A stretch of DNA of 64,000 nucleotides from an uncultured Candidatus Saccharibacteria bacterium (GCA_964350985.1 CAYGLK010000002.1:64382-128381); one strand, 5' to 3'; shown: positions 8,062-61,885, counted from the stretch's first letter. Notes: generated by a model from the sequence alone, not told the origin. Program-made: numbers and translations.

Positions 8062-8147
8062 TGGAGAAGTGTCAGAGTGGTCTATCGTGCTTCCTTGCTA
8101 AGGAAGTGGGGTTCACGCCCCCGGAGGTTCGAATCCTCTCTTCTCCG
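8062..8147 (+). tRNA. tRNA-Ser, anticodon GCU (type II tRNA with long variable arm). Non-canonical 18-nt anticodon arm; no encoded CCA
   Basis: Acceptor GGAGAAG/CTTCTCC, T-arm GGAGG-TTCGAAT-CCTCT, variable arm GGGG-TTCACG-CCCC. Anticodon arm cttcc-ttgctaaa-ggaag has one extra nucleotide (8-nt loop, or 6-bp stem plus 6-nt loop). Confidence 0.75.
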
Positions 8148-8157
8148 CTTTTTGAAA

Positions 8158-16482: not shown

Positions 16483-16634
16483 AATATATTGGAGGATTGG
16501 CTATGAAATCTAATTTGTTTTAGATTTCATCCGATCGTTCCCCAGAACGAATAATCGATGCTTTAGCGAGATTATAGGGAGGGTAACGAAGCCAATCCTA
16601 TCTAAGATCAGAGTGAATATATTGGAGGATTGGC
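16483..16634. repeat. 23-nt direct duplication (gtgaatatattggaggattggct) of the tRNA 5' end plus leader, with an inverted 10-nt copy (agccaatcct) in between
   Basis: Copies at 16483-16505 and 16612-16634; the inverted fragment sits around 16580. Confidence 0.55.
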
Positions 16635-16710
16635 TGAGTGGTTGAAAGCAGCAGTTTACTAAACTGCCGAACCTTAACAGGTTCCGAGAGTTCGAATCTC
16701 TCATCCTCCG
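16624..16710 (+). tRNA. Type II tRNA (Ser-class architecture) with apparent anticodon ACU (loop TTACTAA); unusual A34; no encoded CCA
   Basis: Acceptor GGAGGAT/ATCCTCC, D-loop AGTGGTTGAA, anticodon stem GCAGT/ACTGC, variable arm GAACCT-TAAC-AGGTTC, T-arm GAGAG-TTCGAAT-CTCTC. Confidence 0.65.
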
Positions 16711-16717
16711 CGAGTAC

Positions 16718-36876: not shown

Positions 36877-36949
36877 CCGCCTGTAGCTCAGTTGGTAGAG
36901 CGCAGAGCTTATACCTCTGTGGTCCTTGGTTCGAGTCCAAGCGGGCGGA
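36877..36949 (+). tRNA. tRNA with anticodon UAU (loop CTTATAC), putatively tRNA-Ile(UAU); no encoded CCA
   Basis: Acceptor CCGCCTG/CGGGCGG (one G-U), TAGCTCAGTTGGTAGAGC D-arm, anticodon stem CAGAG/CTCTG, T-arm CTTGG-TTCGAGT-CCAAG, discriminator A. Confidence 0.7.
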
Positions 36950-36955
36950 CTGGCG

Positions 36956-44540: not shown

Positions 44541-44987
44541 ATGACTGATTACGTAAAAAACCGAAAAGCGAGCTTTGACTTTGAATTCCTCGAACAATAT
44601 GAAGCCGGGGTGATTCTCTCTGGTTTTGAAGTCAAAGCCATTAGAGCCAACAAAGCCAACCTAAATGGAGCTTATGTTATTATTCGTGGCGGTGAAGCTT
44701 TCCTGGTTAATGCCTCTATTAGTCCCTATCAGCCAATAAACACTCCAAAAAACTACGATCCAGAACGAGCTCGTAAATTGCTTTTAAGCAAGAAACAGCT
44801 GGCTGAATTGGAGCAAGGGAGTGAAAAGAATGGCTTGACAATAGTGGCTATTAAGTGGTATAATAAGGGAAGTAAGATCAAGTTACATATTGCCTTAGCT
44901 CGTGGAAAGCGTAGTGTAGACAAGCGCGAAAAGCTAAAGGAAAAAAGTAGCAAACGCGACATCGATCGTCTTTTGAAAAATCAATAA
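44541..44987 (+). CDS. smpB: SsrA-binding protein SmpB
   Basis: 148 aa; family-typical N-terminus and conserved K/R-rich C-terminal tail; immediately upstream of the tmRNA. Confidence 0.85.
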   Translation: MTDYVKNRKASFDFEFLEQYEAGVILSGFEVKAIRANKANLNGAYVIIRGGEAFLVNASISPYQPINTPKNYDPERARKLLLSKKQLAELEQGSEKNGLTIVAIKWYNKGSKIKLHIALARGKRSVDKREKLKEKSSKRDIDRLLKNQ

Positions 44988-45071: not shown

Positions 45072-45464
45072 GGGGATGCTAGGCATCGACGGTTAGCCTA
45101 CCCATTATGTGCAGTGTCGAAATTGGAATCAATTCGTTAAAAGGTTCCATCTGTATTTGCAAACAAGCCAATACCAAGTCCTTACGCTAACGCGTTTGGA
45201 TTCGCTCCCGCTCTAGCGTAACCATTCGCCTAGACCCGGATCGATGCGATCGTACTAAACGCCTCATACAGTACGATTCGTAGAATAGCCACGAGGCTGT
45301 GGACTTAAGTGTCGTTGTCGCTTAAGTTCAAGATTGTCACAACTCGAGTAATTGTTGTTTTGTCTCTTCTATAGACAGTTACTTTAAATCAAAGGAGAAA
45401 CTACACACTGTAGATTCATGATGAGTACCTGATTCGGACGGGGTTTCGATTACCCCCATCTCCA
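45072..45464 (+). ncRNA. ssrA: tmRNA (ssrA), one-piece; tag ORF 45159-45221 encodes ANKPIPSPYANAFGFAPALA
   Basis: 5' end GGGGATGCTAGGCATCGACGG (tmRNA-like start); 3' tRNA-like domain GGGGT-TTCGATT-ACCCC plus acceptor CATCTCC pairing with GGGGATG. GCA resume codon in ...tttGCAAAC..., tag ends ALA-TAA. Adjacent to smpB. Confidence 0.7.
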
Positions 45465-45469
45465 CTCGC

Positions 45470-48226: not shown

Positions 48227-49432
48227 TTACAGCTGACCTTTGTCGCGGGAACCGATACCGCCGCCCCGTCCAGACACACCCGCGGTATCGAGTCGATCCC
48301 ACGGAATCATCGCACCGAGCTGATAGAGAGCCACGATGTACTGCAACTCAGCCTGCCCGGCGGTGACGTTCTGGAACTCGATGATGCCGAGCGCAAATTG
48401 CTTCAGGTTCCGCTCGAGTCGCGGATAGTCAGAAGACACCGCCACTCCCAGCGTGCGCAACATCTGCTCGCGATTGGCCGCGCCCACCTGAGCGGGGAGC
48501 GACGGGTTCTCGAGCACCTTGCGGATCTGCTGGGCGTCATACGCCAGCGCCATAGCGACCGGCATTCCGGTACCAGCGAACACGTAGTTGATGTCATTCA
48601 CAACACCATCAGCCGCATCACGCAGTACCTCAGCGGGAGGCGGTTGCATCATCCCCGGAGGAACGATCCCGCCAGCCCCGCCAGCCAAAGCACTCAGCAT
48701 GCCGACCATGGCGGCCGGATTGCTCATCCCCTGTTGCCAGGCGTCGACCCACTGCTTCAGCTGCTGCTGATACGAGTTCAGCGAGCCCCAGAGACGATTG
48801 TTGATTCGGCCCAAGAGCGCGGCCTTGCGCGCCTGGGTGGCGAAGCGACCGTCGACGCCGGGCATGGCCGCAAAAATCTCGGCGTAGCTCCGGCGGGTCA
48901 GAAGGGCCTGCAACTGGTAGTAGTCGTCACCGACAGGTTCTTGGAGCGATTCCGCCTGACGCTCCATCGCCAGACCGATCTTTTCGGGAAGGTCGAAGAG
49001 GCCAAGACGAGCCGCCAGAGCAGCGCTCACGGTACCGGTGACAGTCTCCTTGTTGAACCTGAGAACGCCACCAACCTTGAGAGCATTGAGCCAGGCTTCG
49101 TCCGAAGGGACGGCCGGCAAGACATCGAAGGTCGCCGCACTCATCGCCGGTACCGCGGTTTCGCTAGCGGCAGGTGCCGGAGCGATTTCACGGAGGCCAG
49201 CAATGGCCTTGGCCAACTTCGCCTTGGGAGCGCCGTCGCCCACCGCCGCACCGATATCGGTGTCGGGAGTGAACTCGCGATCCTTGAGGAGACTGATTGC
49301 TTCATCGCCCGGTTCACCGACCAAGCCCTTCAGCGCAGCGGTGATTTCCTCGACGCTCTTTCCGAGCGCAGTGGCAAACGGGGTGATGTAAGCGACCCAA
49401 CCTTCAGGAAGGGTGATGGTTGTATCATTCAT
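48227..49432 (-). CDS. GC-rich hypothetical protein (401 aa), last gene of the GC-rich operon; no recognisable motif
   Basis: Long ORF with high-GC codon bias; Ala/Gly/Gln-rich low-complexity stretches. Confidence 0.55.
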   Translation of the reverse strand: MNDTTITLPEGWVAYITPFATALGKSVEEITAALKGLVGEPGDEAISLLKDREFTPDTDIGAAVGDGAPKAKLAKAIAGLREIAPAPAASETAVPAMSAATFDVLPAVPSDEAWLNALKVGGVLRFNKETVTGTVSAALAARLGLFDLPEKIGLAMERQAESLQEPVGDDYYQLQALLTRRSYAEIFAAMPGVDGRFATQARKAALLGRINNRLWGSLNSYQQQLKQWVDAWQQGMSNPAAMVGMLSALAGGAGGIVPPGMMQPPPAEVLRDAADGVVNDINYVFAGTGMPVAMALAYDAQQIRKVLENPSLPAQVGAANREQMLRTLGVAVSSDYPRLERNLKQFALGIIEFQNVTAGQAELQYIVALYQLGAMIPWDRLDTAGVSGRGGGIGSRDKGQL

Positions 49433-49476
49433 GACTTCTCTCCACGTAGATGCGGGTTTTGCCCGCGGGTTGTATT

Positions 49477-50865
49477 TCAGAAAATTGCTTTGTCGAGTTC
49501 GGTGGGACCGAACGCGAGCATGCGTAGTGGAATGCCGAGGTTTTCGGCGACCAGCTCCTTGGCTAGTGCAATGGCACCATCCTTAGAGCCACCGGGAATC
49601 ATGTGGCGAGTAATGACCGGCTTTGCGCTCATGAGCGCTTTACCAAGTCCTTCCTGATACCACAGTTGTTTGTCGTCTTCTCCTCTTCTAACGATTATTT
49701 CACCTTCCTTGGTGAAATAGTTTTGATCGAGCTCACCTTCGTAACGCTGGCAAACATCCCAAGCGCCGAAACGCAAAGGGGTGTCAAACCAAGTCATTGC
49801 CACGGCGTCAAAAGTGCCGCTGCCTCCACTCACCTCCTTGGCGTAGCGGAGCGCAACAAAGTCTAGCGGGCCAACACGCACCTTACCACGATAGCGATCG
49901 GGCTTGCCGACCTCTTCGGGAAGTAGCGTTTCGGCCATCTTCGCATCGTCAACCACAAGCGGCCCGGCCCCGTGTCTGATTTGATACGAGCGTGTCACAC
50001 CGATTTTTGCGACGTCACCATCCCATCCGTTCTCGCGGAGCAGACTCCAAGAGGTTATCTCAGGGAGTGTCCGGAGGCGGGTGGTATGAGGATGAAAGCC
50101 GTTAAAGCGATCGGTGAGAATACCGTGTGAACTTTCAACCACAATCACTCCGTCGCGAGATAGAACCTCACGACGCAAATAGTCATGATCGACAATGCGC
50201 ACACTCCTCCCAAATTCTTCAAACACATCGCCGACCCAATCAAGGAATCCGTCAGTGCGAATGAGATCAATCTGCTTCTGCACCTCTTCAACGTCGCCTG
50301 CCAGATAGCCTGCTTCCAAGACAAGTGCCAGGTCGCAGAGCTTTTGTGCATGTGCTGCACGAAGCTTTTCTCTGATACCTGGTTGCTTGAGATCCCTTGC
50401 TCTAATCGCCAGTTCCGGAAAGAGTTCGGCGTCGAGGAATGCTTCCCCAACACCAACACCTACCGTCCCTTTTGGGTTTTCCTTGCGAGCAAGTTCCTTC
50501 AGTCGTGACGCTATGCCATGAAAAGGCGTCGTCACGAGGGCATTCTCATCGACAGCGATAATAGACAACGGGTCGTAAATTCCATGTTCGTAGCGGAGCT
50601 CCTTAGCCTCGTTGAGGAAGCCAAGGGGCGAAACCACAAACCGGTCAGTCACGAACGTGCGGGCACCATTGAAGGTGCCACACCCGAACTGACTGAAGGC
50701 AAACTGTTCACCACGGGAGGTTGTTACGCCGTGATGTCCTTGTGCTCCCCCAACCTTGATGACGGTATGGGGTTTTCGGAGTGAGCACAACTTGTGCACC
50801 ACACCCCCTTTCCCCCCGTCACCACCACCAAGGTCGGTGACAGTATAGGCTTTCTTTTCGACCAT
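49477..50865 (-). CDS. Divergent adenylosuccinate synthetase (PurA/PurZ family) homologue
   Basis: 462 aa; GGGDGGKGG aligns with the GDEGKGK P-loop, GGAQGHHG with GGHNAGH, VVSP with VLSP, GTVGVGVGEAF with GTTGRGIGPAY, VESSHGILTD with FEGAQGTLLD, RHGAGP with RVGAGP. Several substrate-contact positions are substituted. Confidence 0.6.
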   Translation of the reverse strand: MVEKKAYTVTDLGGGDGGKGGVVHKLCSLRKPHTVIKVGGAQGHHGVTTSRGEQFAFSQFGCGTFNGARTFVTDRFVVSPLGFLNEAKELRYEHGIYDPLSIIAVDENALVTTPFHGIASRLKELARKENPKGTVGVGVGEAFLDAELFPELAIRARDLKQPGIREKLRAAHAQKLCDLALVLEAGYLAGDVEEVQKQIDLIRTDGFLDWVGDVFEEFGRSVRIVDHDYLRREVLSRDGVIVVESSHGILTDRFNGFHPHTTRLRTLPEITSWSLLRENGWDGDVAKIGVTRSYQIRHGAGPLVVDDAKMAETLLPEEVGKPDRYRGKVRVGPLDFVALRYAKEVSGGSGTFDAVAMTWFDTPLRFGAWDVCQRYEGELDQNYFTKEGEIIVRRGEDDKQLWYQEGLGKALMSAKPVITRHMIPGGSKDGAIALAKELVAENLGIPLRMLAFGPTELDKAIF

Positions 50866-50931
50866 AAAACCTCCCAGTCATTGTGACCGCAAGTGTGCAG
50901 GACTCTCGTCCTGCACACCTTTACGGCAAGT

Positions 50932-52050
50932 TCAGAGCCACGTTCCGCCAGCGGCGGCTTCGGGCTCACTTCCTTCTTCAGCGACCGGCCACAGGTCGTG
51001 CTTGTTGGCAAACACCGCTCCCTTCCCGGGAATCTTGTCGAAATTGGGGAAGAGCGTCTGTGCGCCAAGCGGGATGTGCGCCACTGCGCGCTGAATTTCA
51101 CGCGCCACAGTTGCACTACACCCAGTTTCCGTGAGGAAACCCACGACCGACTGCAGGTCGAGTACACCTTCCGTCAGACCGATGATGGCCGCTTCGACGT
51201 AAGCGATGTGCTTGGTGGTATCAATCACCACCACGTGTTCATCCCCGTAGTACCGCCGCCAGTAGTTGACACTGTCACGGCCCACCATGATGGCAAACGC
51301 ATGAGCCCGCTTCTTGAGCACGCTCATGATCTCATCAGTTCCAGACGGAAAATCCCGCTGGTCCATCGGAAAGCCATTGTCCGAGCACCGCTCGAACACC
51401 GTCTCGCCGAACACCCGGATGAGATGCCGCTTGTCGACACGTCCATGACTCGTGGCGTCCGTCGTCATGAAGTGGTACGGCAGCAGACCGTAGCGGTTGA
51501 TGAAGGGGTCGGTGAGGAACGCTGCCCCGAAGAGACCGTATTCCGGATCTTCTGGCTCGTCGCCACCCTTGCCTTCAGCAATCATGAGCACGAGTTGCTC
51601 AGCGATACGGACATCCATCTCCGCCTGCGTTCGGGCGAGGACGAACTTGTCCTCCACGTCACCGAACATGGCATTCATGATCTGCACATCGTACCGTCCG
51701 AGGAGCGGGTTTGCACCCGCCGTCAGGAGGTCGTACTGCTTCGGCAGCGAGTCGAAGATCAGGCGAATGTTGCTGGCCATGGAACCCGTCGTATCGAACA
51801 AGTTCTCGACGAGCATCGGTACCCCGACGCCGAGCCGGAACTTGCCGTTCACGAGTTCATCATAGCGAGGCCACGACTTCCGTACCAGGTCATACCCAGC
51901 CGGATCGACGAGGGCATGAAGTGCCCCCGTCGCTTCGTAGTGTTGCCGACCTGCGTGTGAGGCATCGCCACCTGCGGCAGCGACCTTGGCGGATTCTCCG
52001 GCGTAGGCCGAACGATCAAAGTGACGAAAGCTCTTGTCTGCACGACTCAT
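50932..52050 (-). CDS. vWA-like (MIDAS-type) domain protein, tentative
   Basis: 372 aa; beta-strand MLVENLF followed by DTTGSM (compare DxSGSM); overlaps the upstream gene by 4 bp (ATGA). Confidence 0.4.
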   Translation of the reverse strand: MSRADKSFRHFDRSAYAGESAKVAAAGGDASHAGRQHYEATGALHALVDPAGYDLVRKSWPRYDELVNGKFRLGVGVPMLVENLFDTTGSMASNIRLIFDSLPKQYDLLTAGANPLLGRYDVQIMNAMFGDVEDKFVLARTQAEMDVRIAEQLVLMIAEGKGGDEPEDPEYGLFGAAFLTDPFINRYGLLPYHFMTTDATSHGRVDKRHLIRVFGETVFERCSDNGFPMDQRDFPSGTDEIMSVLKKRAHAFAIMVGRDSVNYWRRYYGDEHVVVIDTTKHIAYVEAAIIGLTEGVLDLQSVVGFLTETGCSATVAREIQRAVAHIPLGAQTLFPNFDKIPGKGAVFANKHDLWPVAEEGSEPEAAAGGTWL

Positions 52051-52889
52051 GGTCTATCTCCTGTGGAAAGTGCGAGTGTTGTAAACGGATGAAAATTCCG
52101 TCCCCAGAGTGACTCTACCGTGTGGTAGAAAGCGGAATGAGCCTCACGAGCATCGCAAAATGCTCCGCGCGTAAGACTCATCAGAACTGCCTCATAGGCA
52201 GAATCATAGTCGGGGTCATCTTTCGGAAGCGTCATTGTTGCCAAGTCGCCTCCAAGTAACCACCAAACATTTCGTGCAGCCAGAGCGACTTCTTCGCGCC
52301 GGCTTTTGGCATCGAACCCTCTTTTCGCTTGCGACCAATCAAGCAGAGTCACCAGATGGTGCTCTTTCTCAATCAGGGTCGTTTCGTGATCAGCGAGGCT
52401 GCCAAAACCGACATCGCAGCTATGGACGAAGTCAAGGAACTTGAGGGTCTTCCCCAAGATCCAAACACTGGTCTTCATATCGACCCTGGACCGATCACGT
52501 TCACGAATGAAAGAGATAGGAACAAGGTCGATCAAACGGTCAACTGCTTGGAACCCAAGAACAACGACCCGGCGGCTTCCTTGATCTGGTACAACAAACG
52601 TTTCGACCACCTGCGGAAAGCAGATGGTGTAATTCAGCCTGTTGTGTCCCGGGAATTTCCGCTGATACTCAGCTTCGAGCCCCGCCGCGGCCTCGGTCAA
52701 CTCGCCGAGAAGAAAAGCTTCGCGGTCGAGAATCCCATTTTGGGCGGTCGAGACACCAATCTTCAGCATCAATTCGGAGTCGGGAGATTCTGGATTTTGC
52801 ACCCGAAAGTAGCGAAATCTGTCATTCTCTCCGACCAGGTTTTGTACCTGGTACGTACCTTTACGGCCACAAACATGTATGGAGGACAT
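52047..52889 (-). CDS. Hypothetical protein with weak protein-kinase/APH-like fold signals, first gene of the GC-rich operon
   Basis: 280 aa; HSCDVGFGSL...LLDWSQA resembles the catalytic-loop and DFG/IDW regions of APH/CotS-type kinases. Low confidence. Confidence 0.35.
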   Translation of the reverse strand: MSSIHVCGRKGTYQVQNLVGENDRFRYFRVQNPESPDSELMLKIGVSTAQNGILDREAFLLGELTEAAAGLEAEYQRKFPGHNRLNYTICFPQVVETFVVPDQGSRRVVVLGFQAVDRLIDLVPISFIRERDRSRVDMKTSVWILGKTLKFLDFVHSCDVGFGSLADHETTLIEKEHHLVTLLDWSQAKRGFDAKSRREEVALAARNVWWLLGGDLATMTLPKDDPDYDSAYEAVLMSLTRGAFCDAREAHSAFYHTVESLWGRNFHPFTTLALSTGDRP

Positions 52890-53393: not shown

Positions 53394-54107
53394 TTAGATA
53401 ACGAGCGAAAGCTCAGTAAGTTTTTCTGACTGAAAACGATAGAGTGCTGCCGGGCGATTCTTTACTCCCTGTTGTACCTCGCCAGTTTCTACCACCATCC
53501 CTAGAGCAACGATCTTTTTTCGAAAGTTACGCTTATCAATCTCCTTGCCTAAGATTAGTTCGTAGACAGTCTGAAGTTCAGTTAGTGTAAATTCTTTCGA
53601 GAGTAAGAATTGAGCAATGTTCGTATAGGAAACCTTGCCTTTCAGACGATTGAGTGCGGCGGTAAACATCTTGGTGTGGTCATACGCCAGCTTTGGCAAC
53701 TCTCGGACCGGACACCAGCGCAGTCCTTTGTCTAACTGAAGCGCGTGGGCATCCGGCCTAACCAAGCCTAAATAGCTGACAGAAATAACGCGATTACGTT
53801 TATCGCGTTCAATTTCACTAAAAGTATAGAGCTGCTCAGTATAGGTTTTCTTAAGACTTGTCTTACTAGCGATATGACGCTCGAGAGCCATCTCCGCAGT
53901 TTCCTTGGCTTCAATCAAACCGCCGATAAAGGCTTCAACCTTCGTGTAGTGTGGCGGACGATTAACTTCACCAAGGAGCACCGAAAGCTTTCCATCCAGC
54001 ACCGCGAACATCACCACATCAACCGCCATGGCGGCAAACCTCATTTTATCTGGCGCCTTTTGTGACATATTAGTGTTAAATATACACTCACTGAGACTGC
54101 AGTTCAA
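53394..54107 (-). CDS. Nudix-hydrolase-like domain fused to a C-terminal winged-helix (NrtR-like regulator); the ATG start at 54068 is plausible
   Basis: 237 aa; degenerate Nudix box GGLIEAKETAEMALERHIASKT; C-terminal helix-turn-helix-like region; intermediate GC. Confidence 0.5.
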   Translation of the reverse strand: MNCSLSECIFNTNMSQKAPDKMRFAAMAVDVVMFAVLDGKLSVLLGEVNRPPHYTKVEAFIGGLIEAKETAEMALERHIASKTSLKKTYTEQLYTFSEIERDKRNRVISVSYLGLVRPDAHALQLDKGLRWCPVRELPKLAYDHTKMFTAALNRLKGKVSYTNIAQFLLSKEFTLTELQTVYELILGKEIDKRNFRKKIVALGMVVETGEVQQGVKNRPAALYRFQSEKLTELSLVI

Positions 54108-54402
54108 GTACCTTTATTTCATTATTTAAGTGGAAAAATTACACATTTAATTTTCAATTTTATGGCCCTGCCCCCTTTTCCTCAAAACACTTAGAGCAAT
54201 TGACCAGAAGAATATTTCTGATACATTTAAATTATGTTTAAACAACATACAACTAATAGTTGGTGGCCTACACGAAATTCTCATCGTGCGGGCTTTGTGT
54301 TGTAAAATTTTATACTCATTCTTTTGTATACAAAACCCGCTCTGTGAGCGGGTTTTGTTATGTAGCAAAACAGTTCTTTCACACCAACCCAAGGAGAGTC
54401 TC

Positions 54403-55182
54403 ATGATTACCAAACGTAACCGCACTGCCATCATGCAGTATGCGCAAAGCCACCAGGCCGAAGGCCGAGTAGAACAAGCTTTCCAGACATTGGAAAACAT
54501 TCTGCCACTGCTTGGTCCCCAGTCGCACAGTCGGGCTATGATTAATCGTCTCGGCACTGTCCTACTGCAGGAAAAGATTCGGATTATTGCCCCCTCTTGC
54601 CCTGACTACTCACATAGTCACGGCCAGTACAATTTCTGTACTGTCGGAGGTGCGATTCCGCTCTTGTCGCAGCTGCATATAAAGTTTCTCGAGACTATCG
54701 CGCCGGCAATCCCGCACATGGAGTGTGAGATTGTCGTCGCTGATCAAGAAGCTGATGATGCGGTCTTGTGCCGGAAAACTGGTCAGACCAGAGATGAATT
54801 TCTGGGAATGATTCACCAGTCTATCAAAGCAACCCGAGAACACCTCTTGGGTAAAGGCTGGATCGTCACGGCAATGACCGAACGGTTCCCCGAGCTGCGG
54901 TCTCTGGAACTGACGATGGCAGGAGAAATCACCAATAACAGTGACCTGCAAAGTCGCATTACCCATGACGCCCAGGCACGTTCTGTGATGTATCAAAAAC
55001 TTGGAGTTTCTGACTTCAGTGAGATGCGTCAAAGAACAATCCGGACAGCGTCACAGTACTGCGCCCTAGCGCACATTGCCGCTCGCGATCGATTGCTGGT
55101 CTGCAATCATGAGACGGTGAACCTTGGCTGGTACAACCAGTACGGAGCAGCGGTCCTGCACAATCCCGTATCGGTCTATTGA
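54403..55182 (+). CDS. Hypothetical protein (259 aa from the RBS-supported ATG), moderately GC-rich
   Basis: AAGGAGAG 6 nt upstream of the ATG at 54403; no recognised motif. Confidence 0.5.
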   Translation: MITKRNRTAIMQYAQSHQAEGRVEQAFQTLENILPLLGPQSHSRAMINRLGTVLLQEKIRIIAPSCPDYSHSHGQYNFCTVGGAIPLLSQLHIKFLETIAPAIPHMECEIVVADQEADDAVLCRKTGQTRDEFLGMIHQSIKATREHLLGKGWIVTAMTERFPELRSLELTMAGEITNNSDLQSRITHDAQARSVMYQKLGVSDFSEMRQRTIRTASQYCALAHIAARDRLLVCNHETVNLGWYNQYGAAVLHNPVSVY

Positions 55183-55246
55183 AGAAATTATGTGCGACTC
55201 TTCACTGGGTCGCACTTTTCTTTAAGCTATAATTAGTAAACTTTAT

Positions 55247-55801
55247 ATGACTATCCAAAAAATTCTAGACTACGATATTTATGCAGGAACCTCAGGCACT
55301 GCTCGCTACCTTCGTGTTTGTAGTCTTCTAAATCAAACAATAGATCCCGACACTCTTTACCCCGATACGCTAGATTGCTTCGGACAAAGTGTACTAACGT
55401 CACCCCGCAAACGAGCCCAAAACTGCATAAAGAAATCCTCAGCCAAATCAATCACGCCAAGCTTAGCCTTAAATGAAATTGCTTTTGAATTAAAAGAATT
55501 TTGTACCGAGGAAAATTTTCTTCAGCATGGTAGTACGGCGGTCAGAGCCGCTTTTGTTCAGGCATTTATCATGAACAGATTAGCGATACCCCACACCCAA
55601 CTACAAAGTGAATTAAAAGAAATCTTAGCTGTCACCCACCAGTCCGAAATCACTTTACGCATCTCACATACATTCCGCATTAAAATGATTGAGATCTATA
55701 GCATAATCGGCGACGAATTATTTAATAATCCCAGCCTTATCAAGGACTATCTGGACACAGAAAAACACCTCTTTGCCTTTGGAGAGAAGATTGAAGTATA
55801 G
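55247..55801 (+). CDS. Hypothetical protein (184 aa)
   Basis: ORF with an AT-rich upstream region; no motif recognised. Confidence 0.4.
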   Translation: MTIQKILDYDIYAGTSGTARYLRVCSLLNQTIDPDTLYPDTLDCFGQSVLTSPRKRAQNCIKKSSAKSITPSLALNEIAFELKEFCTEENFLQHGSTAVRAAFVQAFIMNRLAIPHTQLQSELKEILAVTHQSEITLRISHTFRIKMIEIYSIIGDELFNNPSLIKDYLDTEKHLFAFGEKIEV

Positions 55802-55877
55802 AGAGTCATACTACAGAATCTTCAGTTTTATTGTCTCTGTCTCTTTTAACTGTAGAGACGGGTTATAATTACTGAAT

Positions 55878-56354
55878 ATGAATAACATCAAATTTACCCA
55901 CGAACTGATTAAGGGAAAGATTGCAGAAATTATCTTTGAACAGATGATACACAACACTAAAGGCTATACCGTATTAGAATTCGGCTACGAAAAAGTAGTC
56001 CATCAACTGGCCAAAGCCCCTAAGAGCGAAGACGCTAAAGCAATGATAGAAATTGTCCGCAAAGCCCCTGACTACGCCATAGTAAATGAAGACACTCACA
56101 ATGTGACCTTAGTTGAAATCAAATACATGGCTAAAAGAACTAATGGTAAAGTAAACGCTATTGCCAAAGAGATAGAAAAGTCTTGGCGACACGCTGCCCT
56201 CTTCATTGCTACACCAGATGGTTTTTTCTTTGATCAAGTAGACACTATCATCACAAACAAAGGTGCTATCAAACCCTTCCATCATGGCAAAATCCAACCA
56301 AAGCTTATAGATCAGTATCTAGCGATGTTAAATGAATTTATTGTGGTGAAGTAA
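55878..56354 (+). CDS. Hypothetical protein with possible PD-(D/E)xK nuclease-fold signature
   Basis: 158 aa; ...APDYAIV...VTLVEIKYM... matches the PD..(D/E)xK arrangement. Terminator aaaaccgcc-ttag-gcggtttt at 56376-56399. Confidence 0.4.
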   Translation: MNNIKFTHELIKGKIAEIIFEQMIHNTKGYTVLEFGYEKVVHQLAKAPKSEDAKAMIEIVRKAPDYAIVNEDTHNVTLVEIKYMAKRTNGKVNAIAKEIEKSWRHAALFIATPDGFFFDQVDTIITNKGAIKPFHHGKIQPKLIDQYLAMLNEFIVVK

Positions 56355-56451
56355 CAAAACGAAAGTAAAGCAAAGTAAAACCGCCTTAGGCGGTTTTACT
56401 TGTTCTAGAATCACAACACATAATCTTCAATTTTATTGTCTCTGTCTCTTT

Positions 56452-56895
56452 TTATATTTGGGAAGGCGATAGAATTACAATTTCATTACCAACAATTTTT
56501 TCAAGTCGTTTTCTTAGTCCTTCGTCACCAGAATAGATGGTGTGTTTTTCAGCATACTCTGCGAATGGTAGTTCTAAAGACCAAAATGCGCCCTTACTTT
56601 CAATCAGTGTTTTTGCTAGCGCAAGGAGCGAAACGTCACCCATACCTCGCATAGTATAAATTGATTTACCACCAACACTGTTTAAAATAAAATGATAATT
56701 CTTTAAGTAAAGCGCTTTCTGAAATGACTCCTCTTCAAAAAGATCAATTAAATATGTTAAAGGTGCAGCTTTATTCAACGCAATTTCGAGAGTGTATATT
56801 TCCTCAAGAATATCAGGCGTAACGAAAAAGTTTTCATCAATGATAATATTATTTTTCATAACAAAATTTAGCGCTGACGTATCAAGAATTTTCAT
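56452..56895 (-). CDS. PIN-domain protein (VapC-like nuclease fold)
   Basis: 147 aa starting MKILDTSAL (PIN N-terminal Asp motif); overlaps the upstream gene by 4 bp. Confidence 0.55.
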   Translation of the reverse strand: MKILDTSALNFVMKNNIIIDENFFVTPDILEEIYTLEIALNKAAPLTYLIDLFEEESFQKALYLKNYHFILNSVGGKSIYTMRGMGDVSLLALAKTLIESKGAFWSLELPFAEYAEKHTIYSGDEGLRKRLEKIVGNEIVILSPSQI

Positions 56896-58085
56896 AGGCT
56901 GTTTGCCTTACAGTAGGATTTGAAATCTTTATGCCGAGGACGCCCAAACAAAAGATACTGTGCCGGAACATTAGTAATTCCTTTTACTCGCAAACTGCGG
57001 TTAATTGATTCAGTTGAAATGCTTCCGCAAAATTTATTTGCTGCGTTTACCGGTGTGATTCTTTTCATTGGTTTGCTCGGCATTGATTTCTTTACGTATT
57101 TTGGTGGAAGCAAAGCTTTATAAACTGACAGACTTATTATTTTCCGACGAAGCAGGGTTGTTAAGACAGCAGTTGGCGTAAGATTGTAATCGTTTGCCAA
57201 GTTGTCTCTTGTTGTTGTGGTAACTATCTTGTCTCGTAAAGCTTCAGTAACTGAGAAGGGTAATAAGAAAGCTGTGACGATGTCGTGTAAATTTTTAACC
57301 CCGCCTTTCCTTTTAAGCATACTGGCACTGTGATGGCCTTCAATATAAAAGTCATACTGATCAAGACCAATACACGCAAGAAGGTAAATGAGCGTATAAA
57401 TTCTTCTCCCAGCTACATCATCAGGATTTATTTCGTCGGGTAGAAAAATATAAGGAACTTTTTCACTTTGTAAAACGAAACCGCTGGTATTTTTATAAAC
57501 AGTAATAAGGGTGGGGCTTTCCGGTAAAACTCCACCCTTAAGTACTCCCCTCGAGATATTTATGTTCTTTTTAGTGATTTGCGAAATAAGATATTCGAGC
57601 GCGTCTTCTTTATTTTTAGATCTAAATTTTTTAATATCAATTTCAAAGTGTTTGAGAGTGAAGTTAACTTGATCTATAAGAGTTCTTCCTTTGAAAGAAG
57701 AAACAAAGGCATTGTTGGTGTAATAGGAGTCGCTTTCGACAAAAGCCTGCAGTCGAATAAGTCTATCTATGATTCGTTTTGAAGTAACATTGCCTGAACC
57801 TTTACGTTTAGAAAAGCTGGTATTTTTAAACTTGTCCTTTCTCTGCAACTCAATAGAGTCAAGTTCTTTTTTTAAGTTTCCAATATTTAAAAAGAATATT
57901 TGCCAAGGGAGACAAATTGATTCACATTCACCTAATATAACGCTGTAACTGATATGACCAGCATCACGAGCGTCCCTAAGTAGAGGTCTGTCGAAAAGAC
58001 GTTCCTCGGGATATAACCGTAGAATCAAATCAAATACGTCGTCACTGATTTCGACCGCGTTATCTCGGCCAATTTTTACCCACAT
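56892..58085 (-). CDS. Hypothetical 397-aa protein translationally coupled to the PIN gene
   Basis: ATGA-type 4-bp overlap with the PIN gene; no catalytic motif recognised (no HExxH, no YxDD). Confidence 0.5.
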   Translation of the reverse strand: MWVKIGRDNAVEISDDVFDLILRLYPEERLFDRPLLRDARDAGHISYSVILGECESICLPWQIFFLNIGNLKKELDSIELQRKDKFKNTSFSKRKGSGNVTSKRIIDRLIRLQAFVESDSYYTNNAFVSSFKGRTLIDQVNFTLKHFEIDIKKFRSKNKEDALEYLISQITKKNINISRGVLKGGVLPESPTLITVYKNTSGFVLQSEKVPYIFLPDEINPDDVAGRRIYTLIYLLACIGLDQYDFYIEGHHSASMLKRKGGVKNLHDIVTAFLLPFSVTEALRDKIVTTTTRDNLANDYNLTPTAVLTTLLRRKIISLSVYKALLPPKYVKKSMPSKPMKRITPVNAANKFCGSISTESINRSLRVKGITNVPAQYLLFGRPRHKDFKSYCKANSL

Positions 58086-58289
58086 GGACCCAATTATGCG
58101 CCTCGTTTACACAATCGCAAGAGCTGTGTAATAAAGAGAAGATAAAATCTGGCAAAACAAACCAGAGTTGTGACTTTTAGTCGTATGACAGGTCAGATTT
58201 GCTATTAAAGCTCGGGCGCGCAGAAGTCCTCTCGCAAGGGAATGGACGACATTGTAATAAATTTTGTATAATACCTTCAAAAGGCCTTT

Positions 58290-58618
58290 GAAACACTAGC
58301 GGGAGATTTAGAGTGCCCATTTCTGTAGTCTAGGGGATCAACTCACTTCCCCCCTAGTCAGCGTTCATGTTGAGCGTTGACCCAGGGCGCGGAGAGGTGT
58401 GCCCCGGATTATTAGCGTAAGCAAACCAACCTATGACGAAAGTCAAAACAGGCGGCACCGCCTCGAAGTCAGGGCAATACCGTGTTTCGGAATCGAAATA
58501 AGAGATTACTCTGTCCAAAGGTGACCGAGTTCCTCCATACGGAGGCAAAGCGGTAACCTTTGTGCTAGTCGATAAGACCAAGCATAAGAAGTAATTGTCG
58601 TTTTCCCGCTAGTGTTTC
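58290..58618. ncRNA. 329-nt GC-rich structured element closed by a perfect 15-bp terminal inverted repeat (gaaacactagcggga / tcccgctagtgtttc); candidate ncRNA, strand undetermined
   Basis: About 55% GC against AT-rich flanks; internal hairpins CUAGGGG..CCCCCUAG and ggcggcaccgcc; no plausible ORF. Confidence 0.35.
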
Positions 58619-58625
58619 AGATGAT

Positions 58626-58916
58626 TTATTTTATAAGTAGGCTGACTATTGCAACCAACACACCCACTGAGGCCGCTATACCACCAACCCATGTTGCTGT
58701 GCGAATGGACTTTGTAAGTTGATCAGATGACTTGGCGGCGCTATCAAGCATATCAGCAAGTCTGTTGATGGCTTGATGGGGTGGCGCACCCGGAATATGC
58801 TTTTCGTGATGAAACCAAACCATTTTCCATAGGAATTTATCAACCTTATCTTCATAGGTCATATTTGGCCATTCTTCTCGCAATCTGCTTATTTCATCGT
58901 TTTCTCTGTTGAACAT
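58626..58916 (-). CDS. Small protein with C-terminal TM anchor, immediately downstream of the R-M gene
   Basis: 96 aa; start overlaps or abuts the stop of the 988-aa gene. Confidence 0.4.
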   Translation of the reverse strand: MFNRENDEISRLREEWPNMTYEDKVDKFLWKMVWFHHEKHIPGAPPHQAINRLADMLDSAAKSSDQLTKSIRTATWVGGIAASVGVLVAIVSLLIK

Positions 58917-58918
58917 AA

Positions 58919-61885
58919 TTAAATTTTATAAACTGAATCTATCTCCTTCATGATGCGATCTGTTTCGATAAGGGCAACGATAATTTTTTGGTAGTGTTCA
59001 ACATCTTCATGTGTTAGCTTTCGATCTTTGCGGTCTTTAAGCCACTTTTGGGCAGGTTGGTACCCACCAATATAGAAATTCCAAGCAACTTCTGGTACGT
59101 CACCAAAACACTGCTCGCTATTGATGTAAACGTTGCTATTTTTGTAGGAAATTTTCTCCACTAAATTCTCTCCTGATACAGAGTAACTTGTCACAAAATT
59201 ATAAAGTTTTGTTGATTCCATCAGATGAATCTTTTGAAGCTCTACTCCTAGTTGTGACAATGATTGGTATGACTTAGCGTTACTAGGGAACGGTATACTA
59301 GGAAAGTTTATTTTCAAAAACTCACCGTAATTATCACGGTATGTATGAGAGTATAGAGTCGCGTATATATATCCGAAAAGCTTCTCTGCATCTGTATCAC
59401 CAACAACACTTTCAATCTTTCTGTAGATTTCTGGCTCAAAGTTGTTCATTCCTTCACCATGGTCATCGTAAACATACAAAGGGAAATGATAGGATCCAGT
59501 ACTACTCTCGGCGGTCTTCATCTCTGATAAAGTATCTGAAACAAAGTAGTGATTAGTAAAACCAGATTTTGACTGTCTACCAGAAAGTAGATTAATGTTA
59601 TTTTTGAGAGAATGTTTCATCTGTTCTTTTCTGTGTCGTTCAACAAGTTTTGTATCATAGTAAATAAATCGAACGTCAAAAGGTCTGTAAAGTATTCTCT
59701 CGACTAATTCCTCATCATAGTCAATAGGATCGACTCCATGCGCTAGAACCTGTAGTCGTAACTCTTCCTTCGAAAAACCTATAACAACAGCGTCTCTGTG
59801 TGTTTTAATCCCAGCTGCTTTTACGAGGAACAGGTCTTCAATAGAGAAGTTTTGGTTGTATTCTTCCTCAAGTTCAAAATTTTTGGGAACAAAAAAGAAG
59901 TATGGATCTTTACTATCTAATTTTTTCCACTCAGTGTTTTCGATGTTTGAATTTGTAAGTTTAGAATATTTACTTTTTTGTGTTCCATACAAGTCGGCAT
60001 GCCAAACGTTTGCTAAGTTTTTGCTTCCACCGCTTTTTTTAACTAGGATTGAGATTGCGACTCCTTGCTGAATCTCAAAAACATTTTCATCTTTACTTCC
60101 GTCTGGTGATTTCTCTTTTTTATTTGAATCTCCATGTAAATTGTATATATAAATGTCATCAAAAGTTTCTAGCAAATGTTTACGCATCTGACGGTGAACA
60201 ATGCCATCAACAAAAGAATTATTGGTGATCATGGCAATGATTCCAGACTCATTCTTTTCAATAAAATGCTCAGCCAGTCTCAGGAATTTTACATAGTCGT
60301 CAGACAAAGCGTTGTAACTTTTCTCTTCGAGACCATTTTTGTAGACCTTAACTAAATCTTGAATCCACTTACCTTTATTACTTGAGCTGGGACTATACGG
60401 TGGATTTCCAATAATAACCATAATTGGGGTATCATTCTTTATTTTGCTGGCCTCTTTAGATTCTTCGGCAATACTTTCAGCAAAACCGAATCCAGAGAAC
60501 ACAGAATCTTGTGGAGCTGTTTCTTCCAAGGAATTTGTTAGAAATATGTTTAGTCGCCGATGAAAATTCCAGAAACCTGTCTTTTTAAATGCCATACTCA
60601 ACTTTAAATGAGCGATAGTATACGGCCCCATCATCAACTCAAATGCGTGGATGCGTGGCAGTAAATCGTGGTGCACATAGGCTGGCCATGAACCTTCTTG
60701 CTTTGATTTCAAAATACGTTCGTATATTGTTCGAATTACTGCACTAATGAAAGTCCCTGTTCCGGTGGCAGGGTCAAGCACTTGTACTTTATGTATACCG
60801 TTTTCATGCTTACTTGTATCTGCTAGGCCACGAGCGAGACCAAAATCCTTCTCGAGTATTTTATCAACTGATTTCACAATAAATCGAACTACTGGAGTCG
60901 GTGTGTAGTAAGCACCCATTTTCTTTCGTAACTCAGGATCATACTCTTTGAGAAAGTCCTCATAGAAGTGAATGACCGGATCAGGTCCTTCTGTCTCATC
61001 ACCCCAAAGAGTCTTGCCGAAATATTGTGTCATCAAGTCTTTTACGTCTGCATGGCGAAAGACCTCACATAATTCATCGACAATATAACCTAGTTTTGGC
61101 TCAAAATTTACCCCTGCAATATGGTCGAAGAAGTGTGCAAGAAAAGGATTAGACGCTGGTACCAAATCGCGTGCTTCTGAACGACTGAAAGTTTCCGGTG
61201 TTTCGTCACTGTATCGAGCAACAAAAAGTCCGTATACCAGGGTCTGAGCATACATATCTGCAAAAGACTCTTTGGACATATCGTGCACAAGCAGATTTCG
61301 CATTGTTTCAAACACTTTTTGGACGTCTGTCACCTTATCTCGGTTGAGTATGCTGAGTACGTTGTCACTTAGTCTTCGCGCCTTGCCACCCATAATCTCC
61401 GCGAGATGTTTACCATCTTTAATTGGTTCAGCTTCACCATGCAAAAAGTCAGAAAGAGCATTCAAAAGTCTTTCAAATTGTTCAGTGTTTGAAACTAAAT
61501 GACCATTTTGTATATGAGCGATTCTGATTGGATCTTCGTACACGACTCCGTTTCTAAAAAAGCGAAATTCTAGATAATCAGTAAGAATTAGGTTTGAATA
61601 TCCTAAATATCTTTGCATCTGGTCGGATTTTTCCACCTTATCCAAATCAACACCAATATCTTTTGTTTCTGTGTAGCCTACGGTTACATCACCTCTGAGG
61701 AATACAAAGTCAGGATTTCCATGAGCACTTCTTGAAGGGTCATTAAGTATCTTAAGTGACGCATCAAGCTCGTGGATGAGTCTTTCGAAAACTGGTCTGT
61801 ATGCATGCTCACGTGCTTGGCCAGTCTGAAATTTGTCGTTTACTGATGCAAAGTATTCCTCAAGTAGTTTTGACGAGTATGCCAT
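58919..61885 (-). CDS. Type IIG/IIL single-chain restriction-modification enzyme (N-terminal PD-(D/E)xK nuclease, gamma-class N6-adenine methyltransferase, C-terminal target-recognition domain); MmeI-like
   Basis: 988 aa; MTase motif I VLDPATGTGTF and motif IV NPPY (VIIGNPPYSPS); GAYYTP; N-terminal D..E.K region DFVFLRGDVTVGYTETKDIG. Confidence 0.75.
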   Translation of the reverse strand: MAYSSKLLEEYFASVNDKFQTGQAREHAYRPVFERLIHELDASLKILNDPSRSAHGNPDFVFLRGDVTVGYTETKDIGVDLDKVEKSDQMQRYLGYSNLILTDYLEFRFFRNGVVYEDPIRIAHIQNGHLVSNTEQFERLLNALSDFLHGEAEPIKDGKHLAEIMGGKARRLSDNVLSILNRDKVTDVQKVFETMRNLLVHDMSKESFADMYAQTLVYGLFVARYSDETPETFSRSEARDLVPASNPFLAHFFDHIAGVNFEPKLGYIVDELCEVFRHADVKDLMTQYFGKTLWGDETEGPDPVIHFYEDFLKEYDPELRKKMGAYYTPTPVVRFIVKSVDKILEKDFGLARGLADTSKHENGIHKVQVLDPATGTGTFISAVIRTIYERILKSKQEGSWPAYVHHDLLPRIHAFELMMGPYTIAHLKLSMAFKKTGFWNFHRRLNIFLTNSLEETAPQDSVFSGFGFAESIAEESKEASKIKNDTPIMVIIGNPPYSPSSSNKGKWIQDLVKVYKNGLEEKSYNALSDDYVKFLRLAEHFIEKNESGIIAMITNNSFVDGIVHRQMRKHLLETFDDIYIYNLHGDSNKKEKSPDGSKDENVFEIQQGVAISILVKKSGGSKNLANVWHADLYGTQKSKYSKLTNSNIENTEWKKLDSKDPYFFFVPKNFELEEEYNQNFSIEDLFLVKAAGIKTHRDAVVIGFSKEELRLQVLAHGVDPIDYDEELVERILYRPFDVRFIYYDTKLVERHRKEQMKHSLKNNINLLSGRQSKSGFTNHYFVSDTLSEMKTAESSTGSYHFPLYVYDDHGEGMNNFEPEIYRKIESVVGDTDAEKLFGYIYATLYSHTYRDNYGEFLKINFPSIPFPSNAKSYQSLSQLGVELQKIHLMESTKLYNFVTSYSVSGENLVEKISYKNSNVYINSEQCFGDVPEVAWNFYIGGYQPAQKWLKDRKDRKLTHEDVEHYQKIIVALIETDRIMKEIDSVYKI

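Follow-up and report, generated by a model that had tools for sequence, protein, structure and literature searches.

A conserved gene pair encoding a PIN-like protein and a degenerate ImmA/IrrE-type partner beside a type IIG restriction-modification gene in an uncultured Candidatus Saccharibacteria bacterium

A stretch of 64,000 nucleotides from an uncultured Candidatus Saccharibacteria bacterium (GCA_964350985.1, CAYGLK010000002.1:64382-128381), in the following called the window, carries at positions 56452-61885 a group of four genes, two of which form a translationally coupled pair. The pair encodes a PIN-like protein of 147 amino acids (aa) and a 397-aa partner with a degenerate ImmA/IrrE-type domain. 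On balance we lean towards reading it as an autonomous mobile module in the style of toxin-antitoxin (TA) or abortive-infection systems, of the Rosmer-like kind that combines an ImmA antitoxin with a PIN toxin, here with a pseudo-peptidase as the partner. An earlier note on this DNA had proposed an uncharacterised two-gene defence or TA module next to restriction-modification (R-M) genes. The two-gene organisation, the lack of previous characterisation and the R-M context are borne out by our analysis; the toxin or defence function is one that we infer from the genomic context.

The coupled gene pair and its two proteins

All four genes lie on the minus strand, and the list of open reading frames (ORFs) reproduced the positions given for them earlier. 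The gene for the 397-aa partner (56892-58085) is followed by the gene for the 147-aa protein (56452-56895), which starts with MKILDTSAL. The stop codon TGA of the first gene shares the tetranucleotide ATGA with the start codon ATG of the second (...AGC CTA TGA). For comparison, 16 loci from GTDB species representatives, 50 metagenome loci and two contigs carrying a homologue with 92% identity were available. Downstream sequence of 470 bp or more was present in 51 loci; local hidden Markov models detected the PIN-like ORF in 49 of them, and the two loci without it are decayed copies. The pair is thus a conserved two-gene unit. Since 45 of these 49 homologous pairs share the ATGA junction, the overlap that had been read in the window is not due to chance. 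Altogether, 35 distinct pairs were found.

A promoter-like site (TTGCGA-16-CATAAT, minus strand, 58093-58120), identified by consensus match only, ends 7 nt ahead of the start codon of the 397-aa gene, and alignment showed that the block around it is kept in L017, L067 and L068. Just 3' of the PIN-like gene and between convergent genes, a consensus scan found a terminator-like hairpin with a 13-bp stem followed by a T-run (56373-56401, minus strand). From these two signals the pair looks like a transcription unit of its own.

The small gene belongs to a dedicated family of proteins of about 145 aa, for which an exhaustive profile search yielded 73 representatives at 50% identity. The AlphaFold2 model of the 147-aa protein is confident (predicted local distance difference test, pLDDT, 92.1) and predicts a compact alpha/beta/alpha fold with a parallel beta-sheet, like that of solved PIN domains. 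The top match of this model in a Foldseek search of the PDB is the Rrp44 PIN domain (E 4e-3, probability 1.0, template modeling score 0.54, TMq); HARP (8ssf), a PIN-like protein-only RNase P, and VapC (5ecw) are among the other top matches, and the E-values for this fold are modest. Alignment of 51 family members revealed an acidic D-E-D-D quartet, in which D5 and E32 never vary and at least 90% of the sequences keep D87 and D124. In the model, D5 follows beta1, E32 lies in helix 2, D87 begins the helix 85-103 and D124 comes after the strand 118-121; we predict from the alignment that these four are the catalytic residues. The protein is acidic, with an isoelectric point (pI) of 4.9.

None of the 51 scanned members of this family matches a curated PIN model significantly (Pfam PIN, PIN_3, PIN_4, DUF4411 and others). 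Marginal Pfam matches were obtained to PIN_4 in three of the 51 (best E 0.035) and to PIN_6 in one (E 0.11), and the window protein itself matches NF009147, an archaeal PIN/Zn-ribbon model of NCBIfam, weakly over residues 1-49 (E 0.004). The PIN label that the protein had received earlier can be kept on account of the predicted fold and the conserved acidic residues, but no family model confirms it for the window protein. By fold and active site we assign the 147-aa protein to the PIN-like superfamily, as a divergent member that has kept its metal site, falls into no curated family and is predicted to act as a nuclease.

In a protein database clustered at 90% identity, the 397-aa protein has 175 homologues of about 397-400 aa. 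Most of them come from metagenome-assembled genomes of Patescibacteria, one is from Bradyrhizobium elkanii, and a few carry the JGI label 'Zn-dependent peptidase ImmA'. The AlphaFold2 model, built from 37 sequences, is confident (pLDDT 87.7, predicted template modeling score 0.87). The protein has three parts: an N-terminal domain of about 190 aa, an ImmA/IrrE (M78)-like domain that spans residues 195-325 approximately, and a C-terminus that is basic and helical. With this model, Foldseek placed IrrE (3dti, probability 0.66) and CapP (7t5t, probability 0.96) at ranks 1-2 in the PDB, and two phage IrrE-like proteins came first in BFVD (probabilities 1.0 and 0.99, TMt 0.46-0.48); this similarity in fold is confined to the middle third of the chain. 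The same region, residues ~205-313, is hit by Pfam Peptidase_M78 (PF06114) in ten of the 37 members with 16-19 bits and a best E of 1e-3, which is below the gathering score of 22 bits. The PADLOC model for RmrA matches eight of the 37 weakly (E 4e-4 to 7e-3), and the capP model matches one (E 2e-6). By these four independent lines, what had been called a 397-aa unknown carries a degenerate ImmA/IrrE-type domain, although no model of Pfam, NCBIfam, PHROGs or PADLOC is significant for the window protein. The same four collections gave no significant model for the 147-aa protein or for the 96-aa protein encoded nearby, so that the term uncharacterised holds. A PDB sequence search with single proteins and with the A2 profile of the 397-aa family returned only matches at chance level, and an exact look-up of the 397-aa protein of the window found no record.

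The active site of the peptidase fold is lost. The motif H[ED]xxH was found in the ImmA/IrrE-like domain of none of 120 family proteins and in none of the 47 locus-encoded ones. The helix that follows two beta-strands, where HExxH is expected, has the sequence R-[QR]-I-[YF]-T-L-x-[YF]-L-[LIV]-x-x-I-G-L, and the zinc ligands of the ImmA/IrrE-type fold are all replaced by hydrophobic residues. The alignment shows that the family has kept the 'LLP' found after the third zinc ligand of ImmA-type proteins. Because HExxH is absent in every family member, the partner, judged by its sequence, cannot be a protease, and proteolytic control is excluded. The N-terminal ~190 aa contain the invariant motifs YPEE, PWQ and TSKRIxDR in the alignment and match no family.

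A 501-aa ORF in a related locus (L009:2576-4081) has an N-terminus with an XRE-type helix-turn-helix (MTQADFAKALKTSQSAVARME) and was considered as a true ImmA reference. It has neither HExxH nor an M78 domain, and by eye its remaining part resembles a MurA/EPSP-synthase-type enolpyruvyl transferase. The fusion is an odd one, and it gives no residue-level alignment to an active ImmA.

Distribution and genomic context of the pair

Most loci with the pair belong to Patescibacteria, and scattered cases occur in other phyla. The GTDB species representatives gave only 16 matches, which fall into Patescibacteria, FCPU426, Flavobacteriaceae, Methylophilus and Rhizomicrobium; Bradyrhizobium was added by the protein search. 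A phage origin was considered and rejected, as a pattern-limited search of IMG/VR found no relatives of the 397-aa protein. The best named matches of the FtsH protein encoded in the window have 82-89% identity, and FtsH similarity places the host in Candidatus Paceibacterota (Patescibacteria). FtsH is common to more than 120 clusters of relatives at 81-89% identity, whereas the 397-aa protein is found at 85% identity or more in only three clusters, with the next match at 51%. Synteny with the relative L137, whose FtsH (P0229) is 86% identical, holds through MacB-ABC-FtsH-smpB and ends after the gene for transfer-messenger RNA (tmRNA); in the window this edge is formed by smpB (44541-44987) and the tmRNA gene (45072-45467). 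In L137, the 9 kb past smpB contain no homologue of any window ORF located at 45.5-64 kb. Integration of an island at the tmRNA gene was considered and rejected, since no repeat of the tmRNA 3' end is present downstream within the window, although synteny does break right there. The two genes travel together across phyla, and on the best reading the pair is autonomous and horizontally mobile.

The neighbour of the pair in the window is a gene for a 988-aa protein (58919-61885, minus strand). The methyltransferase motifs I and IV and the N-terminal nuclease region described earlier for this single chain could be verified: the motifs P58-D59...E73-x-K75 at the N-terminus, VLDPATGTGTF and NPPY were read in the sequence, and the PADLOC model REase_MTase_IIG matches with an E-value of 3e-273. 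Pfam matches comprise Type_ISP_C (E 2e-70), N6_Mtase, Eco57I and MmeI_Mtase (E 6.5e-8). By these motifs and models, the protein is a bona fide single-chain type IIG enzyme, ordinary for its class, in which a PD-ExK nuclease is combined with a gamma-class N6-adenine methyltransferase; the domain for target recognition is a relative of the Type ISP C-terminal domain. The next gene (58626-58916, minus strand) codes for a tail-anchored membrane protein of 96 aa with one strong C-terminal hydrophobic helix (residues 77-95, Kyte-Doolittle 19-residue mean 2.55). Its transmembrane anchor had been recognised correctly before; the gene is not fused to the type IIG gene at its stop, as had been stated, but abuts it with a 2-nt gap (TAA-TT-ATG). 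Both genes together are separated from the pair by 540 bp.

Co-location of the pair with R-M genes had been noted for the window and proved to be recurrent across related loci and not a single case. R-M genes lie within about 5 kb of the pair in at least 13 of about 33 distinct loci; about 60% of the distinct loci have none. In eight distinct loci the pair is located inside a type I R-M operon, with gene ends that abut or overlap. In L001, L005, L018, L023 and L033 it is found between hsdS and hsdR, with an additional gene in front of hsdR in L033. In L019, whose upstream flank is cut off, it directly precedes hsdR-ygjP, and in L003 and L027 it comes after hsdR-ygjP. Elsewhere, L053 has an MmeI-like type IIG enzyme beside the pair, L032 a C5 methyltransferase, and L040 and L041 have N4/N6 methyltransferases; in L010 a Schlafen-type helicase adjoins it. 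In ten loci (L008, L011, L015, L029, L032, L037, L039, L041, L042 and L044) the direct neighbour is a gene for a large serine recombinase (Resolvase + Recombinase + Zn_ribbon_recom). Counted over distinct loci, there are about eight such cases. This neighbourhood suggests that the pair is carried by a small integrative element.

The closest relative of the pair, with 92% identity (L067:128-3618 and L068:3-3301), has genes for an EcoRI-like methyltransferase, a GmrSD_N-HNH protein (type IV-like) and a DUF2130 protein upstream. The type IIG and 96-aa genes are missing upstream of the pair there; the backbone is otherwise conserved but carries another defence cargo. No homologue of the window type IIG enzyme was found in related loci, and the R-M neighbours of the pair are thus different systems each time.

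Folding, alignment and covariation identified a structured noncoding element of about 335 nt at 58285-58625, between the pair and the 96-aa gene. This block is 82-92% identical in 11 related contigs (L017:502-841, L067:3619-3967, L068:3302-3650, L129:5321-5664 and L130-L136), whereas conservation is absent from the adjoining 120 nt on the side of the pair; with the window, the element is known from 12 closely related contigs. Compared with shuffled sequence, its folding has z-scores of -8.3 (plus strand) and -6.3 (minus strand). A terminal stem of 16-20 bp with a compensatory change from C:G to U:A joins both ends, and the consensus structure of six sequences contains 119 pairs (96.7% paired). 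Seven pairs show compensatory changes versus 0-1 in slid controls, with 15 changed cells versus 5.4 expected. A conserved promoter-like site of the TGnTATAAT type lies at 58243-58272 on the plus strand (alignment, consensus scan), and a conserved U-run follows the 3' arm. These two signals and one-sided G-U-compatible changes indicate that the element is probably encoded on the plus strand.

Rfam contains no family for the element at the gathering score or at E <= 1, no second copy is present in the window, and blastn against phage and plasmid collections gave no match. The 60 exact 15-mer matches in viral contigs are due to chance, as none of them aligns to the element. A coding function is ruled out by indels of 1 nt and 8 nt. 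RNase P RNA was considered on the basis of the paired ends, the length of ~335 nt and the strings GGAGGAA and ACAGAAA; it was rejected since there is no RNase P match in Rfam and no P4-type pairing by eye. Going by its structure and conservation, we regard the element as a candidate, either for a structured RNA not known before or for a recombination site with a folded structure.

The element occurs independently of the pair and does not belong to its conserved unit. In L129-L136 it follows, together with the 96-aa gene, an HpaII-type R-M system (C-protein, RadC-C5 methyltransferase, RE_HpaII), with different genes on the other side and, in L129, a large serine recombinase at the far end of that system. 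The block of both (58281-58917) is 90% identical to L129-L136, and the 96-aa protein is more than 90% identical there. The ATG of the 96-aa gene is exactly where the homology sets in, and the R-M cargo has therefore been exchanged at this very point. In the window as well as in L129-L136, the 96-aa gene follows the last R-M gene after 2-5 nt.

Further observations concern other parts of the window. A block of four co-oriented genes (48227-52889, minus strand) has a GC content of 0.55-0.58 in a genome of ~0.38-0.42 and was probably transferred recently from a high-GC donor. It encodes unknown proteins of 401, 372 and 280 aa and a divergent adenylosuccinate-synthetase-like protein of 462 aa (Pfam E 1e-29). 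An NrtR-type Nudix/winged-helix regulator gene (53394-54107, minus strand; NrtR_WHD E 8e-26, weak match to PADLOC PDC-S07) lies between this block and three plus-strand genes without family match (54286-56354). ARAGORN predicted a tRNA-Ser with the anticodon ACT (16624-16711), besides tRNA-Ser(GCT) at 8063-8148, and a tRNA-Ile with the anticodon TAT (36877-36950); ACT and TAT are both unusual for bacteria.

Candidate functions of the pair

In the TA-style reading that we favour, the PIN-like protein would be an Mg2+-dependent nuclease, probably an RNase, whose unrestrained activity would arrest growth. The 397-aa partner would keep it inactive through stoichiometric binding, and the ATGA coupling would set the ratio of partner to nuclease. 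As the partner cannot be a protease, it would act as a pseudo-enzyme sensor or inhibitor and not as the cleaver of a repressor, the role proposed for canonical ImmA or RmrA. Phage infection or loss of the element would remove or occupy the partner and release the nuclease. The outcome would be abortive infection or post-segregational killing, which would back up or stabilise the neighbouring R-M genes. The layout agrees with that of type II TA systems: the genes form a coupled bicistron with an upstream partner and a downstream PIN-like gene, bracketed by the promoter-like site and the terminator-like hairpin. The reading also fits the class already described in which ImmA-domain antitoxins are joined with exchangeable toxins, PIN-like ones included (PMC5499597, PMC10440598; RosmerTA, doi 10.1101/2022.05.11.491447).

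Several observations weigh against this reading. Type II systems have a small, labile and less conserved antitoxin; here the partner is 397 aa long, confidently folded in the model and better conserved than the PIN-like protein (mean identity of 45% versus 35%, higher in 33 of 35 pairs). Most type II antitoxins show the reverse, a hint that the partner plays an active part itself. The partner is also strongly basic (pI 9.6, charge +21), so that its size, charge and conservation are all atypical for an antitoxin. In three metagenomic loci (L016:6001-7198, L048:1623-2820 and L050:173-1165) the large gene is split or truncated and the PIN-like ORF downstream is intact. These disruptions are either assembly errors or tolerated losses, and if they are real, they speak against a strictly essential antitoxin. 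At E <= 0.1, the 147-aa window protein has no match in Pfam, PHROGs or PADLOC, and the 397-aa window protein matches neither Peptidase_M78 nor the RmrA model of PADLOC. An XRE-type helix-turn-helix was found in none of the 37 members, one of which has an HTH_Crp_2 match at E 0.13, and no conserved helix-turn-helix gene flanks the pair in the loci examined. Finally, the HExxH-equivalent helix (225-241) was placed with Pfam coordinates and topology and not by residue-level superposition.

A bolder proposal, which we consider doubtful, is that the pair represents a new abortive-infection family guarding restriction. A dead sensor with an ImmA/IrrE fold would respond to phage (anti-restriction) proteins and gate a divergent PIN RNase. 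The family would sit at the prrC position or beside other R-M systems, mainly in Patescibacteria, and in the window it would stand at an exchange point of defence cassettes marked by the new structured RNA of ~335 nt. 

Patescibacteria have tiny genomes, and their immune repertoire is poorly charted. The family of the pair is missed by Pfam, NCBIfam, PHROGs and PADLOC and is therefore absent from the defence annotation of this group. Its repeated insertion between hsdS and hsdR offers a concrete case for asking whether TA-like nucleases back up restriction enzymes. The family also puts to the test the mechanism proposed for ImmA-type antitoxins, proteolysis of a helix-turn-helix repressor: it kept the fold, the operon and the PIN partner but discarded both the catalytic site and the helix-turn-helix. 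Control must consequently follow another logic, with binding or sensing by a pseudo-enzyme.

A rival explanation, one of two that we take seriously, that the pair is functionally wired to the neighbouring R-M enzyme as a PrrC-like guard in which the pseudo-peptidase senses anti-restriction proteins or the state of the R-M complex and unleashes the PIN nuclease as a second line, seems unlikely to us. In the EcoprrI locus, prrC occupies the slot between hsdS and hsdR, and the five loci with the pair at this very place, with start and stop codons that abut or overlap, fit such a guard. So do the different R-M types that flank the same pair in close relatives, and the high conservation of the partner, which suggests recognition of something conserved. 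The loci without any R-M gene within ~5 kb, about 60% of the distinct ones, do not fit, nor do the many loci in which a serine recombinase is the only neighbour, because there the pair must work alone. Furthermore, the pair has no sequence relation to PrrC or to other PADLOC models.

The other serious rival, which we regard as rather improbable, sees the basic 397-aa protein not as an inhibitor but as the subunit that binds nucleic acid and confers specificity; the two proteins would together form a constitutively active PIN nuclease directed straight at foreign nucleic acid. The opposite charges of the partner and the acidic PIN-like protein, the better conservation of the partner and its invariant N-terminal motifs, which are typical of a functional site, would be in line with this, as would weak homeodomain-like fold matches for the helical parts of its model and the loci with a disrupted partner but intact PIN-like ORF. 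Yet no DNA- or RNA-binding family was detected in the partner, and the gene order and the 4-nt overlap correspond to described TA arrangements (PMC5499597, PMC10440598).

The partner might also be an ImmA-like regulator of the anti-repressor type that controls genes of the island or the R-M system, with the PIN-like protein as an accessory RNA-processing factor and not a toxin; we give this little credence. ImmA and IrrE do regulate mobile elements and stress regulons (PMC5499597, PMC10440598), and serine recombinases adjoin the pair in ten loci. ImmA/IrrE regulation is proteolytic, however, and none of the 120 proteins here has the catalytic motif, and no cognate repressor gene is conserved beside the pair.

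A vertically inherited PIN protein for housekeeping RNA maturation with a chaperone-like partner, to which the Foldseek matches to the Rrp44 PIN domain and HARP might point, can practically be set aside, because FtsH is widely shared while the 397-aa protein occurs in three close clusters and rarely and patchily across unrelated phyla, synteny breaks after smpB-tmRNA, and the pair lies in mobile-element and defence-island contexts; the refuting case named in the earlier note does not apply, as neither protein is housekeeping.

Comparison with known systems

RosmerTA consists of the toxin RmrT and the Zn-peptidase antitoxin RmrA (Millman et al., doi 10.1101/2022.05.11.491447), and the 'ImmA hub' of NetFlax combines ImmA-domain antitoxins with swappable toxins, with PIN-like proteins explicitly among the partners (PMC10440598). 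The pair shares with these the two-gene operon, an ImmA/IrrE (M78)-fold partner of the kind found with swappable toxins and the enrichment in defence contexts. It differs in that the window protein is not recognised by the PADLOC models that detect RmrA, lacks HExxH and has the N-terminal 190-aa domain instead of a helix-turn-helix; the partner is moreover about twice the usual size and better conserved than the toxin. 

HTH-DUF955(COG2856)/PIN-like TA systems with three components have been described for DUF4411, COG2405, PIN_14, PIN_20 and PIN_26 (Matelska et al. 2017, PMC5499597). In them, too, the ImmA-like gene precedes the PIN-like gene, and the PIN-like protein consists of a single domain and has four acidic residues. 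HEXXH is retained in the DUF955 that accompanies PIN proteins (PMC5499597) and is lost here; in addition, the 147-aa family is neither DUF4411 nor any Pfam PIN family, and a helix-turn-helix component is missing.

The arrangement as a bicistron in which the upstream partner gene overlaps the PIN gene by 4 nt is reminiscent of VapBC, and VapC 5ecw is among the fold matches. VapB antitoxins are proteins of ~70-100 aa, acidic or neutral, with a DNA-binding domain, whereas the partner described here has 397 aa and is basic and multidomain, and the similarity of the PIN-like protein to VapC families is not significant.

Like PrrC in EcoprrI, a putative latent nuclease is encoded between hsdS and hsdR in five distinct loci of relatives. 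PIN-like genes are occasionally coupled to type I R-M operons (PMC5499597), and RloA/B/C are restriction-linked ORFs in type I operons (Miller et al. 2005, as cited in PMC10440598). The pair differs from PrrC and the Rlo proteins by the lack of homology: PADLOC, Pfam and NCBIfam gave no match to the ABC-ATPase-like N-domain plus nuclease of PrrC for either protein or family. It is moreover a two-gene unit that also occurs far from any R-M genes, and its neighbour in the window is a type IIG enzyme at a distance of 540 bp.

CapP (7t5t) and IrrE (3dti) are the best structural matches of the 397-aa model. Both are active metalloproteases that cleave the partner repressors CapH and DdrO, respectively, and CapP is associated with cyclic-oligonucleotide-based anti-phage signaling systems (CBASS). 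In contrast, the window locus has no CapH-like gene, no CBASS genes and no HExxH.

Like the type IIG/IIL enzymes of the MmeI family, the neighbouring 988-aa protein unites in one chain a PD-ExK nuclease, a gamma-class N6A methyltransferase and, at the C-terminus, a domain for target recognition. It differs from them in that this last domain is closest to the Type ISP C-terminal domain and the MmeI_Mtase match is weak.

For the pair itself, HExxH, a helix-turn-helix and scores above the model thresholds are lacking, but the systems that it resembles are RosmerTA and the HTH-DUF955/PIN systems.

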